Part shown: positions 13,154-30,505 of the stretch, piece after piece
Position numbering within the stretch: the stretch's first letter is position 1
How the letters are laid out: every line of letters starts with the position of its first letter
Source of the DNA: a virus
Virus record (IMG/VR): IMGVR_UViG_3300037068_000153
Coordinates: 13,173 to 77,172 of that record
Reading direction: 5' to 3' (one strand)
DNA: 64,000 bases
Position numbers and translations under genes: made by a program
The notes under the pieces: model-generated
Database searches by the model: none
Told to the model about the DNA's origin: nothing
What the model saw: only the letters and a program-made list of their open reading frames with translations

Positions 13154-13477
13154 ATGCGAAGCTTACTGCTCTTGCTCCTCTTATCCGGCTGTGATGGCGC
13201 GCTCGCGGGCGGCGACCCGGGCGCGTGCCCCGGGGTCGAGGTCGACGGCTATGTGCAGTGCGCCCCCGCGGCGGAGGAGGGCTGCATCTGCGGGCGCCAA
13301 ATGCCTCCGGGCTCCCCGCAGGCGCTGTCCGGCGGCTGCTACGCCTCGCCCGGCAAGTCGGCCTCATGCTGCGAGGGGTGTTGGGACCGGGACACCGCGC
13401 GCTGCCTTCCCGGCGACGGCAGCGAAGGGCGCTACGGCTCGCACGGCGCCAGCTGCTCGCTCGAGCCGCGACGCTAG
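13154..13477 (+). CDS. Cys-rich lipoprotein
   Basis: MRSLLLLLLLSG-C signal peptide and lipobox; about 10 further Cys residues. Confidence 0.65.
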   Translation: MRSLLLLLLLSGCDGALAGGDPGACPGVEVDGYVQCAPAAEEGCICGRQMPPGSPQALSGGCYASPGKSASCCEGCWDRDTARCLPGDGSEGRYGSHGASCSLEPRR

Positions 13478-14430
13478 CTCTTCCGCATTTCCTCCCTGAA
13501 ATACGCCACCGTCCTCGTCAGTCCGACCGCCAGCGGCGTCGTCGGCCTCCAGCCCAGGAGCCTGCCCGCGCGCCCGATGTCCGGCCGGCGGCGCTTGGGG
13601 TCGTCGGCGGGCAGCGGCAGGTAGTCGATCGCCAGCTCGCCGTCGAGCGCCGTCGCCACCGCGCGCGCCAGATCGAGCATGGTCGTCTCGGTCGGGTTGC
13701 CGAGGTTGACCGGGCCGACGGGCGCGGGCATCGACATGAGCTTGACCAATCCGTCGACGGTGTCGGTGACGTAGCAGAGCGAGCGCGTCTGCGACCCGTC
13801 GCCGTAGATCGTGAGCGCCTGGCCCAACAATGCCTGACAGACGAAGTTGCTCACCACGCGCCCGTCGTCCGGTGCCATGCGCGGGCCGTAGGTGTTGAAG
13901 ATGCGCGCCACCTGCACGCACACCCGGCGCTGCTCGTAGCACCACGATAGCGCTTCGGCCGCGCGCTTGCCCTCGTCGTAGCAGCTCCGCTCGCCGCGCG
14001 GGTTGACGTGGCCCCAGAACTCCTCGCGCTGCGGGTGCTGGTGCGCCGGCGGGTCGCCGTAGATTTCCGAGGTGGAGGCGATCAAGATCTTGGCCGAGCA
14101 GTGCTCCGCCGCGTCCAGGGCCGCGCGCGTGCCGAAGAAGCAGGTCTCGAGCGTCCGCTGCGGGTCGCGCTGGTACGCCGGCGGGCTCGCCGGGCACGCT
14201 AGATGGTAGACCTCGTCGGGCTCGAACGATGCCATGAGCTGCGCGGCGTTTTTCGAGCGCACGTCGTGATCGAGGATCTTGATCGCGCCGACGTCCAGAT
14301 GGGCGAGGTTGGCGTGGCGCCCGGTCGAGAAGTCGTCCACGACCGCGACCTCGCGGCCGTCGGCCAGCAGCCGGTCGACGAGGTGCGAGCCGACGAAGCC
14401 GGCGCCGCCCGTGACGAGCGCCCGCTTCAC
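13474..14430 (-). CDS. UDP-glucuronate decarboxylase (UDP-xylose synthase) family SDR
   Basis: VTGGAGFVGSHL, YHLACPASP, STSEIYGDP, RSCYDEGKR, RIFNTYGPRM, GRVVSNF, DDPKRRRPDI. Confidence 0.9.
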   Translation of the reverse strand: MKRALVTGGAGFVGSHLVDRLLADGREVAVVDDFSTGRHANLAHLDVGAIKILDHDVRSKNAAQLMASFEPDEVYHLACPASPPAYQRDPQRTLETCFFGTRAALDAAEHCSAKILIASTSEIYGDPPAHQHPQREEFWGHVNPRGERSCYDEGKRAAEALSWCYEQRRVCVQVARIFNTYGPRMAPDDGRVVSNFVCQALLGQALTIYGDGSQTRSLCYVTDTVDGLVKLMSMPAPVGPVNLGNPTETTMLDLARAVATALDGELAIDYLPLPADDPKRRRPDIGRAGRLLGWRPTTPLAVGLTRTVAYFREEMRKS

Positions 14431-14519
14431 AGGCACCCCAGCGCGGCGCAGGCGGCGAGGATGAGCAGGATGGAGGTGCCGGCGATGAGGGCGTACGCGA
14501 GTGCAACTTGTGCTGTCAT
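14427..14519 (-). CDS. 30-aa membrane peptide
   Basis: MTAQVALAYALIAGTSILLILAACAALGCL; its stop overlaps the GTG of the decarboxylase. Confidence 0.45.
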   Translation of the reverse strand: MTAQVALAYALIAGTSILLILAACAALGCL

Positions 14520-14557
14520 GCGTCCAGCCTAGCGGCCGGACAGTAGGACGTAAAGAT

Positions 14558-28568: not shown

Positions 28569-28825
28569 TTCTTCTCCGATTTTTTCAGGTGCGCGTTGAT
28601 GGCCTGGCGGATCCAGTCCGAGGGCTTCTTGTCGACGCGTAGCGCCGCGCGTCGCAACCGTCCCCATGTCTCAGGATCGACGCGGAAGGTGCACCACTTC
28701 GATTTCGTTAGCGGTTCGAAACCGTCATCGAAATCACCGATGTCATCTTGCCCTTTGATACTGAAACTGGCGCTTGGTGTATCGCCAGGATCAAATATTT
28801 CTTCGCTGATGCGCTTGCGGGGCAT
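28565..28825 (-). CDS. ribbon-helix-helix DNA-binding protein
   Basis: KWCTFRVDPETWGRLRRAA..KPSDWIRQAI pattern. Confidence 0.7.
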   Translation of the reverse strand: MPRKRISEEIFDPGDTPSASFSIKGQDDIGDFDDGFEPLTKSKWCTFRVDPETWGRLRRAALRVDKKPSDWIRQAINAHLKKSEKK

Positions 28826-28842
28826 GTGTCACGATGTGACAC
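28826..28842. promoter_or_regulatory. perfect 7-3-7 inverted repeat GTGTCAC-GAT-GTGACAC (operator candidate)
   Basis: Abuts the RHH start codon; half-sites recur upstream of other late genes. Confidence 0.65.
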
Positions 28843-28873
28843 CGCGTGGAGAAATTGCGCAAGGGGTTTCTCT

Positions 28874-30505
28874 CTAGAGCGTGAGCCAGTTGCATAGCTG
28901 CGTCGACCCGCCGCGCGCCATGAACCCGCGAGAGCCGAACGCGCTGCTCAATACGTAGCCGCTGGGCGAATCGTCGACGAGACCGGAGACGCCGCGGACG
29001 AGCACGGGGTAGCTGGCGCCCACGCCGCCGGCGCCGTCTTTGACCAGATGCACGGCCCCCGTAGGCGTACCGCTGGCGCCTAAGAAAACGCTGAGGGATG
29101 CGCCGGTGCTCATGATGATGATCGCATAGTCGCCCGGGATCGCCGTGTAGTGGGTCGAGATCCAGCGCGTCTGCAGCACGGCGCCGCCGATATAGTCCAT
29201 GCGCAACCCGCTCGATCCAGCGGTGTTGCCGAAATAGCCCGCCAGCCCGGTGGGACCTGTTGGACCCTGCGGCCCCGTAAATCCTGTCGCGCCGGCGGGC
29301 CCTGTAGCGCCCGTGACGCCGACCGCGCCCGTGTTGCCGCGGGGGCCGACCGCTCCCCCGGGGCCCGTGGGGCCGGTCGCGCCCGTCGCGCCGGCGGGAC
29401 CCGTAGGTCCGGTGACGCCGCGAGCGCCGACCGCGCCGGCGGGACCTGTAGGGCCAGTTACGCCCGTCGCTCCGGCCGGGCCCGTAGGGCCTGTGTTACC
29501 GCGGGGGCCGACCGCTCCCCCGGGGCCCGTCGGGCCGGTCGCACCGGTGAAGCCCTGGGGACCGGTGGGTCCCGTGACACCGCGCGCTCCGGTTGGGCCC
29601 GTAGCGCCGGTGACGCCTGCGGGGCCAGTCGGCCCCGTCGCTCCGGTGACACCGGTGCTCCCTCGCGGGCCCGTCGGGCCAGTCGCGCCCGTCGCGCCGG
29701 CCGGACCCGTAGGGCCCGTCGCACCGGTGACGCCCTGCGCGCCCGTGTTGCCGCGCGGGCCCGTGGGGCCGGTCGCGCCGGTAGCTCCGGCCGGGCCTGT
29801 CGGACCGGTCGCGCCCTGCAGACCCGTGACGCCCGTAGCACCGACGCCGGTCGCGCCGCGCGGGCCCGTGGGTCCAGTCGCGCCGGCGCCGCCGTGCTGC
29901 CCGATATAGGCCCAGCCCGTCGCCACCTGAAGCAGGCTGGCGTTGATTGGGCTGTGCGTGACCCCCTGCACCGTGGCGCGGAAGGTCGAAACGGCGGTGG
30001 CGCCGAACGTGGGGTCGTTCGCCTGCACGGCGTCGTTGAGGTTGTAGCCGCTCGTGCCGCCCGACCAGAAGCCAGGCAGCCAATGAAGGCCGAACACGAC
30101 CGGCACGGCCGGCGGGGTGGTCACAACGTCGGTGAAGAGCGATTGCGACGTGAGGACGACGAAGGGCGAGGAGACCAGCAGCTGTTCGCGGGTGTTGTCC
30201 GCCCGCGTGAGCACGACGTCGACGAGGTACGGCCCCGCGGGCTTCTCGACCGTGTCCGTCGAGACGACGGAGAAGATGACGTTGCCGCTGGTCGGGTCGC
30301 CGCCGACGAAGCCTGTGTACATGCGCGCGAAAAGCAGTACGCCCTGCTGGTCGCGCACCGACATGACGACGGCGAGCGCGCCGGTCATGTCGACCGCTGT
30401 GCTGTCGACGAAGGCCAGGTGGAAGTCGCGGTCCTCCCCCTGCGCGACCTCGAGCTCTTGCGCAGTGCCGACGCTGATGGTGAGTCCGGTTACACGTGCG
30501 GCCAT
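28874..30505 (-). CDS. collagen-like fibre protein 2 with BppU-like N-terminal domain
   Basis: About 215 aa of GAT/GPT/GVT/GPR triplets (approx. 29240-29890); N-terminal QGEDRDF..VDMTGA. Confidence 0.85.

Follow-up and report, generated by a model that had tools for sequence, protein, structure and literature searches.

A candidate locus for the glycosylation of collagen-like tail fibres in a contractile-tailed phage

Introduction

Do some tailed phages carry the enzymes needed to coat their own tail fibres with sugars? The question is raised by a locus (13474-30505) of the IMG/VR virus IMGVR_UViG_3300037068_000153, in which two genes for threonine-rich collagen-like fibres, here called ColA and ColB, stand among genes for glycosyltransferases (GTs), sugar-nucleotide enzymes, methyltransferases, and a B12-binding radical S-adenosylmethionine (SAM) enzyme (rSAM). 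The window, i.e., the whole stretch of DNA analysed (64,000 nucleotides, 66.5% GC), comprises bases 13173-77172 of this single 77,172-bp virus record, which is graded as complete by CheckV. All coordinates given below are those of the window, and all the genes of the locus lie on its minus strand. An initial annotation, made from the letters alone, had described the locus as a complete system of glycan synthesis, transfer, and methylation wrapped around the fibres. All the elements that it listed were found in place by Pfam and NCBIfam scans; its notions of completeness and of a single system did not hold. Among the explanations considered here, O-glycosylation of the collagen-like fibres by a phage enzyme of the GmaR/SgtA type would be the best one, and we regard it as reasonably probable from the comparisons presented. 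A search of the literature found no description of a collagen-fibre glycosylation cassette in tailed phages.

Results

The Split GT2-TPR-GT4 Transferase

The key enzyme of the locus is encoded by one gene, which a frameshift has divided into two open reading frames (ORFs). The upstream half (27327-28568, with an open frame that runs out of register to 27093) carries a GT2 domain (PF00535, E = 3e-15) followed directly by tetratricopeptide repeats (TPRs), recognised over residues 319-419 by the families PF14559, PF07719, PF13432, PF00515, and PF13428. The DxD motif of the GT2 domain is kept, its MDSDD stretch being aligned with the invariant residues D110, D112, and D113 of alignment A2. The downstream half (25835-27316, with an open frame up to 27496) is a GT4 domain of the GT-B type (PF13439, PF13692, PF00534), whose E-x7-E motif is invariant in alignment A1.

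In six relatives, the GT2-TPR-GT4 enzyme is encoded by a single ORF, with 982 amino acids (aa) in the closest relative, G001, 910 in L001, ~1070 in L009 and L012, 833 in L075, and 828 in L015. Along the fused ORF of G001, to which the GT4 half is 62% identical, the alignment with the window holds in frame 1 as far as aa 468 and continues in frame 2 from aa 465. The break is found at a run of five C (27336-27340, minus strand), where 5 nt present in G001 are missing from the window; this difference may come from faulty assembly, from slippage, or from a real division of the gene. An in-frame ATG after the frameshift (27316) is conserved in G001, and translation of the GT4 half may restart there. 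The ratios of nonsynonymous to synonymous substitution rates (dN/dS) relative to G001 were 0.28 for the GT2-TPR half and 0.37 for the GT4 half. The four GT domains described in the initial annotation are all present, with the correction that GT2-TPR and GT4 are halves of one gene and not separate genes.

The only sequence relatives of the GT2 domain in the PDB are GmaR, SunS, and a ThuS-like chain, all of which glycosylate proteins or peptides. GmaR, the flagellin O-N-acetylglucosamine (GlcNAc) transferase of Listeria monocytogenes, built of GT2 and TPR parts (PMC9638930), is matched at E = 2.8e-9 by the single sequence and at 1.1e-28 by a profile, the match being confined to the GT domain; the corresponding values for SunS are 4e-4 and 4e-12. 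Both domains are covered by the alignment to P0107, a TPR-GT2 protein of Paenibacillus (28% identity over 399 aa, E = 4e-32). With a GT2-TPR profile, 1996 proteins were matched at E <= 1e-5 among the 8000 scored, and most of those listed are GT2+TPR proteins of 355-400 aa.

The link of this family to collagen-like substrates would come from SgtA of C. difficile, a protein of 358 aa with a GT-A domain (1-260) followed by four TPRs, which is encoded immediately upstream of bclA3 and in vitro puts beta-O-GlcNAc on Thr of GPT collagen-repeat peptides of BclA3 (PMC7157674). Of the Firmicute TPR-GT2 members retrieved, 43 begin with exactly the N-terminus that the published cloning primer of sgtA encodes, MITISLCMI, which also fits the consensus ISLCMIVRDEE of the phage enzymes. 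The Firmicute TPR-GT2 family appears to include SgtA, which was not itself among the 120 matches listed in each of the protein searches with this family. Membership of the GT2-TPR part in a family of the SgtA/GmaR type appears well supported by these similarities, and we propose that it acts as the initiating protein O-glycosyltransferase. Its gene adjoins those of its putative substrates, with ColA immediately upstream and ColB ~5 kb downstream. Among GenBank phages, no close homologue of GT2-TPR was found (identity <= 28%, partial). The GT2 family is filed by PHROGs under "moron, auxiliary metabolic gene", and its relatives bear the Joint Genome Institute (JGI) label "involved in cell wall biosynthesis".

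The remaining GT domains belong to a GT2-GT4 fusion of 721 aa (20459-22624; PF00535 at the N-terminus and PF13439, PF13692, and PF00534 at the C-terminus), which is 70% identical in G001. In five other phage contigs (L009, L012, L075, L015, and L013), GT4-half paralogues adjoin the rSAM gene.

Association of the Fused Transferase with Collagen-like Genes

To quantify the association, collagen-like ORFs within 15 kb of the gene were counted in IMG/VR loci, with loci having only the rSAM gene as controls. Such ORFs were found upstream and on the same strand in eight of the nine loci with a fused GT (G001, L001, L009, L012, L075, L015, L016, and L013), compared with 1 of 72 control loci (Fisher p = 2.5e-9). 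When the loci were collapsed to lineages, the counts were 5/5 versus 1/61 (p = 7e-7). Giant collagen-like ORFs, the largest of 2306 aa, precede the fused GT in five independent phage lineages. Considering only runs of at least eight triplets, collagen was present in 6 of the 82 fetched loci, five of which also have a GT2-TPR gene.

The whole arrangement is kept in the closest relatives, G001 (73,971 bp, with terminal repeats, complete) and L001, at 55-87% amino-acid identity. Distant phage contigs show a shorter order, i.e., collagen-like ORF, (FkbM), GT2-TPR-GT4, GT4 paralogues, (Uxs-like short-chain dehydrogenase/reductase, SDR), and rSAM, at 28-45% identity; these are L009 and L012 (153 and 198 kb), L075 (84 kb, 37% GC), L015 and L016 (111 and 240 kb), and L013 (393 kb, complete). 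In cases in which the collagen gene lay beyond the fetched flank, a scan of whole records with the Collagen hidden Markov model located it 4-15 kb upstream on the same strand, the ORFs measuring 2306 and 1570 aa in G003 and G004, 1898 and 1111 aa in G002, and 1385 and 952 aa in G006. The pairing of GT and collagen was also detected in four contigs of metagenome-assembled genomes (MAGs; L086, L088, L090, and L094), and no collagen pairing was seen in ~30 cyanobacterial loci that match the GT4 half only.

Of the ten collagen sets of related loci that are linked to a GT, and that span 37-68% GC, nine have Thr as the commonest residue at position Y of the G-X-Y triplets (39-66%); the exception, L094, has 27% Thr and 48% Gln. 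Near rSAM genes that lack a GT2-TPR neighbour, a single collagen-like ORF was found (L068:6389-7735, minus strand, on a contig of 29% GC), and it is of another type, with Ser at 70% of Y and Thr at 59% of X positions.

The sugar toolkit of the locus, i.e., the rSAM enzyme, the SDRs, and a short Ugd-like dehydrogenase, was present in ~70 other phage loci that have neither collagen nor GT2-TPR genes, so that the locus is made up of two modules and is not one inherited system, contrary to the picture of a single system wrapped around the fibres. In those other places, the neighbours of the rSAM gene include DegT aminotransferase, cytidylyltransferase, PfkB kinase, cupin, GT1, GT2, GT4, and GT11 enzymes, Methyltransf_24, SDRs, and the short Ugd; these loci are often near a T4-type gp32, with no collagen gene nearby.

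The Collagen-like Fibres

In ColA (28874-30505, 543 aa; Pfam Collagen, PF01391, E = 2.9e-30), the G-X-Y triplets occupy aa 202-428, between an N-terminal domain (aa 1-200) and a C-terminal one (aa 429-543), and the protein matches the PHROG tail-fibre families phrog_5073, 819, and 6320 with E values of 1e-52 to 1e-58. It has 75 triplets, 68 of them in the longest uninterrupted run, with Thr at Y in 46 (61%). The commonest triplets are GAT (16), GPT (15), and GVT (8). ColB (16988-20446, 1152 aa; Pfam Collagen, E = 1.3e-34) also matches PHROG tail-fibre families and has 96 triplets distributed in four runs, the longest uninterrupted one of 40, with Thr at Y in 53 (55%). The dominance of GAT, GPT, and GVT ascribed to both fibres is true of ColA; ColB is likewise led by GAT (22) and GPT (18), but there GPA (14) exceeds GVT (9). 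The Thr-richness of the two proteins is high and, taken alone, not exceptional, because Thr is common at Y in bacterial collagen-like proteins (31.6% overall and 48.3% in Gram-positives; PMC8968730).

The N-terminal domain of ColA is 85% identical in G001. The C-terminal (tip) domain (28874-29233) is replaced in that closest relative and kept in the more distant L001 and L086, a pattern reminiscent of the domain swaps for which receptor-binding tips are typical. An AlphaFold model of this C-terminal domain, built from an alignment of three sequences, had a mean predicted local distance difference test score (pLDDT) of 35 and was unusable for testing a BclA-like C1q/TNF fold. In ColB, a globular domain of ~200 aa occurs in three copies (aa 368-578, 668-951, and 957-1054), and the C-terminus is weakly homologous (31% identity) to the corresponding ends of the L009 and L012 collagen ORFs. 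The same ~200-aa domain makes up the C-terminal two thirds of a 365-aa protein encoded at 32315-33412, which has a hydrophobic N-terminus (aa 4-23).

Directly upstream of ColA, and also on the minus strand, lies a gene for a GDSL/SGNH hydrolase (30518-31198; PF13472, E = 8.4e-9), which is absent from G001 and has no counterpart in L085; it could be an accessory enzyme, such as a fibre-associated esterase or a glycan deacylase. The 86-aa ORF (28565-28825) that separates ColA from the GT gene gave only sub-threshold matches to ribbon-helix-helix families (PF21775, E = 0.0049) and no PHROG match.

Sugar-Nucleotide Enzymes

The last gene of the locus, SDR1 (13474-14436), was recognised as a UDP-glucuronate decarboxylase, i.e., a UDP-xylose synthase (Uxs; UDP, uridine diphosphate). 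It matches human UXS1 (4gll, 2b69) with 335.7 bits and E = 2.8e-99 over residues 1-315 against 6-313, the next-best family reaching 158 bits, and the catalytic stretches STSE.YGDP and YDEGKR are conserved. By this homology, the call is a strong one, in agreement with the initial annotation, and it is the only firmly assigned step of the sugar-building route. No NCBIfam equivalog cut-off is reached by Uxs because no bacterial Uxs model applies. The names LegB and RmlB, suggested for both SDRs by the top NCBIfam models, all of them far below cut-off, were rejected; they missed Uxs, which was identified by comparison with the PDB.

The second enzyme of this class, SDR2 (24595-25776), is an extended SDR (PF01370, E = 2.6e-41) and putatively an epimerase or reductase of nucleoside diphosphate (NDP)-sugars. 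Its best PDB matches, a dTDP-glucose dehydratase and a CDP-tyvelose 2-epimerase, score only 93 bits; the YxxxK motif is present, the TDE motif of dehydratases is absent, and no NCBIfam cut-off was reached.

The enzyme annotated initially as UDP-glucose dehydrogenase (23789-24598, 269 aa) turned out to be a short Ugd-like form, with matches to PF03721 and PF00984 only. It shows a GxGxxG motif at the N-terminus (residues 6-14), aligns to residues 83-311 of a Ugd of 446 aa, keeps GGTCFPKD (with the catalytic Cys), NPEFLRE, and KYxxN, and ends 17 residues past the central domain. The NAD and central domains are thus those of the annotated enzyme, but its UDP-binding domain is missing: nowhere in the genome did anything match PF03720 at E <= 1, whereas all control genomes matched. 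The score against TIGR03026 was 146 bits, below the cut-off of 189.8, and, given also the absence of PF03720, it would be wrong to list this protein among the canonical Ugds. Two other explanations were discarded. A truncated pseudogene does not agree with the lack of a remnant in other frames, the equal shortness of the relatives, and a dN/dS of 0.31; a split Ugd with a separately encoded UDP domain is countered by the absence of PF03720 from this genome. The same short form is found in G001, and at least 12 other phage loci have short Ugds of 270-300 aa flanked by SDR genes. In 1.84 billion representative proteins, the short Ugd family comprised 472 clusters at E <= 1e-30, the best 150 of which are mostly of 245-300 aa; in longer relatives, the two-domain module is fused to GT2, GT4, SDR, adenosine 5'-phosphosulfate (APS) kinase, or ATP-grasp ligase domains, or carries an intein. 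On the basis of its domain content, the short Ugd may act on a sugar that is not UDP-bound, and Uxs could draw on UDP-glucuronate (UDP-GlcA) made by the host.

No sugar-1-phosphate nucleotidyltransferase, the sugar-activating enzyme, was found in the locus; the pathway therefore starts from host UDP-sugars and is not complete in the sense first claimed. That the phage makes its own sugar donors holds as far as the Uxs step is assigned, but the synthesis of UDP-GlcA by the phage is unproven.

Methyltransferases and the Radical SAM Enzyme

Two methyltransferases were identified, one of class I (22920-23540, 206 aa from ATG 23540; PF08241, E = 1.6e-6, with methyltransferase matches in the PDB), which is 84% identical in G001 with a dN/dS of 0.24, and one of the FkbM family (16251-16943; PF05050, E = 3e-17; TIGR01444, 78 bits against a cut-off of 37.7).

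The B12-binding radical SAM enzyme (14558-16045), of class B type, is supported by PF02310 (54.6 bits, cut-off 32.1) and PF04055 (88 bits, cut-off 29.5), and its CxxxCxxC motif reads CPFKCTFC. No NCBIfam equivalog was assigned, the best being the PhpK family with 99.8 bits, far under its cut-off of 600. The nearest solved relatives are 9ccb (an unnamed protein), the sugar diol-dehydratase AprD4, and TsrM, and the enzyme is proposed to tailor a sugar by C-methylation or dehydration. At least 87 relatives with 50-58% identity, many of them marine, are located among glycan genes in IMG/VR; in 50,697 GenBank phage records there were virtually none, with one weak partial match in Streptomyces phage SF3.

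Two small ORFs complete the locus, one of ~77 aa (23541-23774) with high GC at third codon positions in frame and no Pfam or PHROG match, and another of 100 aa (22606-22908) that matches phrog_10166 (E = 1.2e-13). No priming transferase, flippase, or polymerase was detected by Pfam and NCBIfam scans of the locus, and no enzyme showed a transmembrane-type segment (19-mer, Kyte-Doolittle >= 1.6), save for a marginal buried strand in the Ugd-like protein; the glycan kit is a soluble one.

Position of the Locus in the Phage Genome

PHROG searches identified the virus as a contractile-tailed phage (myovirus), with genes for a sheath (42814-44373), a tape measure (39775-41328), a baseplate hub (37848-38747), a baseplate wedge (35093-36562), and a DUF2612 baseplate protein (34525-35205). 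The genes for the terminase, portal, and major capsid protein lie upstream of these tail genes, and the whole series from primase/polymerase, large terminase, portal, head-morphogenesis protein, protease, and major capsid protein through the DUF2612 protein occupies the minus strand between ~62.7 and 34.5 kb. As judged by GC at codon positions, minus-strand coding runs on unbroken from the baseplate genes (~34.5 kb) down to ~12.3 kb, and the locus is thus the distal end of the structural gene string, co-oriented and contiguous with the baseplate genes and directly continuing the tail genes, just as initially annotated. In the order of transcription, it comprises ColA, the 86-aa ORF, GT2-TPR, GT4, SDR2, the Ugd-like gene, the ~77-aa ORF, the class I methyltransferase, the 100-aa ORF, GT2-GT4, ColB, FkbM, the B12 radical SAM enzyme, and SDR1 (Uxs). 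A scan for operon signals detected promoter-like and terminator-like sites at frequencies not above those of shuffled sequence.

Purifying selection acts on all the genes of the locus; dN/dS values relative to G001 were 0.17-0.48 across them and 0.16-0.27 in structural genes. All isolated phages are distant, the sheath being at most 33% identical to that of Pseudomonas phage PPSC2. A contig of 9.2 kb from a Myxococcales MAG (L087) carries counterparts of the GT4, GT2-GT4, FkbM, Ugd-like, and SDR genes of the window at 47-58% identity, and its binning with a high-GC Myxococcales genome gives a weak hint on the host. In the wedge protein, a weak match to a carbohydrate-binding module (CBM5/12; aa 145-175, E = 0.0047) stayed below cut-off.

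Discussion

If the collagen-like fibres are indeed O-glycosylated, the two modules of the locus would have distinct tasks. ColA, ColB, and the GT2-TPR-GT4 enzyme would form a fibre-plus-transferase pair, in which the TPR part would hold the unfolded or monomeric G-X-Thr chain in the cytoplasm while the GT2 domain adds the first sugar to Thr hydroxyls, probably an N-acetylhexosamine, as with SgtA and GmaR. The chain would then be extended by the GT4 domain and by the separate GT2-GT4 enzyme. The second module, a sugar-building and tailoring toolkit common to many phages, would provide Uxs for the conversion of UDP-glucuronate into UDP-xylose, SDR2 for the interconversion of an NDP-sugar, the FkbM and class I methyltransferases for O-methylation of the sugars, and the B12-type radical SAM enzyme for C-methylation or dehydration of a sugar. 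The outcome would be fibres with a short glycan, possibly methylated and possibly containing xylose. Within this scheme, the predicted synthesis of UDP-xylose is well founded; we infer the acceptor (Thr of the fibres), the sugars, uronate among them, the targets of methylation, the order of the steps, and the role of the short Ugd.

Several observations weigh against this interpretation. The key enzyme of this very genome is split by a frameshift, and, as the Ugd-like protein appears to lack the UDP-binding domain, the route to UDP-GlcA is uncertain. The link to SgtA rests on a nine-residue, primer-encoded N-terminus together with a shared architecture and the family bridge. Thr-rich collagen is frequent even where no glycosylation is known (PMC8968730). 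In addition, of the 11 MAG contigs that carry the fused GT at full length, 7 lack a collagen ORF within 10 kb, and such an ORF is missing altogether from three of the five genomes to which these collagen-less contigs belong, so collagen is not the exclusive substrate of the fused GT family. Part of the linkage could also be due to the common descent of a mobile cassette. Finally, the phage and all its relatives are, by their records, uncultured, with no isolate among them.

Some of these same observations favour a different acceptor within the virion, such as the capsid, sheath, or tube, the collagen genes then being mere neighbours in the operon. In mycobacteriophages, GTs encoded near structural genes modify the C-termini of capsid and tail-tube proteins, according to the summary given in PMC12619734, and both the occurrence of the rSAM, SDR, and short-Ugd toolkit in ~70 phage loci without collagen genes and that of the fused GT in bacterial genomes devoid of a collagen ORF fit such a role. 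Nevertheless, within phage contigs it is with collagen-like ORFs that GT2-TPR-GT4 travels (8/9 versus 1/72), and its relatives in sequence and architecture include a Thr glycosyltransferase of collagen repeats, so that we consider this explanation unlikely, although worth keeping in mind. The enzymes might instead act on the host, remodelling its lipopolysaccharide O-chain, capsule, or S-layer glycan during infection and thereby blocking superinfection or altering adsorption. The cassettes of GT, UDP-glucose 6-dehydrogenase, and radical SAM genes found in the hypervariable tail-fibre region of pelagimyophages were read as serving O-chain modification (PMC7029224), and the PHROGs and JGI labels of the GT2 family point the same way. 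Yet the locus has no priming transferase, flippase, polymerase, ABC exporter, or membrane segment, it is located in a late structural operon of a region with no sign of lysogeny, and the characterised GT2 relatives act on proteins or peptides; moreover, the linkage to collagen would be left unexplained. We therefore give host-surface remodelling a small chance.

Modification of DNA bases with sugars to evade restriction, at the expense of a phage-made UDP-pentose, has precedents in the GTs with which phages hypermodify DNA and, more specifically, in Shewanella phage Thanatos, for which a pentose on cytosine and a phage UDP-xylose pyrophosphorylase were reported (PMC12838424). The present genes are located among fibre genes and not among replication genes, no thymidylate-synthase-like deoxynucleoside monophosphate hydroxymethylase was found in the whole 77-kb genome (PF00303, no match at E <= 1), and a TPR-bearing GT2 akin to GmaR and SunS points to a protein acceptor; this possibility is barely credible to us. 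Hardly more attractive is the idea that the locus is decaying cargo in which no functional pathway is left, an idea that the frameshift at the C5 run of the key enzyme and the missing UDP-binding domain of the Ugd-like protein invite. The dN/dS values speak against it, being 0.28-0.37 in the GT halves, 0.31 in the short Ugd, and 0.17-0.48 locus-wide versus 0.16-0.27 in structural genes. In addition, the family of the short Ugd is large and made up of proteins that are short yet intact, an in-frame ATG is conserved after the shift, and an indel in a homopolymer may be an assembly error. Decay is, in our estimation, very improbable. Fibre O-glycosylation remains the explanation that we favour: the claim made initially is supported by GT2 relatives that act on proteins and by the collagen linkage, and it is not proven.

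Comparison with known systems places the proposed pair close to SgtA and BclA3, with which it shares a GT-A (GT2) domain followed by TPRs and a gene beside that of a Thr-rich G-X-Y surface fibre. They differ in the setting, a spore coat in one case and a phage tail operon in the other, in the extra GT4 domain (split here) and the ~30-aa insertion in GT2 of the phage enzyme, and in the further GTs, methyltransferases, radical SAM enzyme, and Uxs that the phage locus adds. GmaR, the best solved sequence relative of the GT2 domain, likewise has an N-terminal GT2 with TPRs, is cytoplasmic, and acts on a filament protein; however, it bears a C-terminal anti-repressor domain in place of GT4, and its substrate is flagellin and not collagen-like repeats. 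On the side of the substrate, BclA of Bacillus anthracis is described as a GPT-rich collagen-like filament of the exosporium with O-linked oligosaccharides ending in 2-O-methylated anthrose, a purpose-built sugar (PMC6222408, PMC8968730). The G-X-Thr fibres of the phage resemble this GPT-rich, O-glycan-bearing collagen-like filament. BclA is a bacterial protein, however, and its glycan consists of rhamnose and anthrose, with separate operons for its assembly. We know of no xylose or radical SAM step in its synthesis.

Among viruses, mycobacteriophages use GTs of their own, encoded beside structural genes, to modify virion proteins (Freeman et al. 2023, as cited in PMC12619734). In the account given by the citing source, the targets are the C-termini of capsid and tail-tube proteins, not collagen-like fibres, and that account describes no GT2-TPR-GT4, Uxs, or B12 radical SAM enzyme. 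Mimivirus combines collagen-like proteins with its own sugar-nucleotide and glycosyltransferase machinery for surface fibrils (PMC9614988, PMC9546862), but it is a eukaryotic virus, its collagen is glycosylated on hydroxylysine by animal-type enzymes, and no homology to the phage enzymes is shown. The pelagimyophages are similar in that cassettes of glycan and radical SAM genes stand among the tail-fibre genes of uncultured myophages (PMC7029224), although their authors favoured modification of the host O-chain and reported no linkage to collagen.

A wider conjecture concerns the class to which this phage belongs. Several unrelated lineages of tailed phages, from 74-kb myoviruses to a 393-kb jumbo phage, might O-glycosylate their own collagen-like fibres by means of three-domain GT2-TPR-GT4 enzymes dedicated to the task and finish the glycan with phage-made UDP-xylose, methylation, and radical SAM chemistry, and the short Ugds may be a new class of enzymes that oxidise a sugar not bound to UDP, for instance on the glycan. 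We offer this conjecture tentatively, since to us it seems about as apt to fail as to hold, with a slight lean towards doubt. As the cassette recurs in many uncultured phages, the value of the observation resides in the class rather than in a single genome. It also draws attention to a widespread, uncharacterised family of phage B12-type radical SAM enzymes and to the large Ugd-like family without UDP-binding domain.

Virion glycosylation has so far been found in the capsid and tube proteins of mycobacteriophages and in the fibrils of giant viruses. If our reading is correct, it would extend to the receptor-binding organelle of ordinary tailed phages, as a virion "glycocalyx" of a sort not yet described for any phage tail fibre, with GT2-TPR-GT4 and the G-X-T repeats as a concrete enzyme-substrate pair. 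A coat of sugars could change how stable the fibres are, how they adsorb, how well they resist proteases, and how host defences recognise them, and would then have a bearing on the prediction of host range and on the design of phage preparations.

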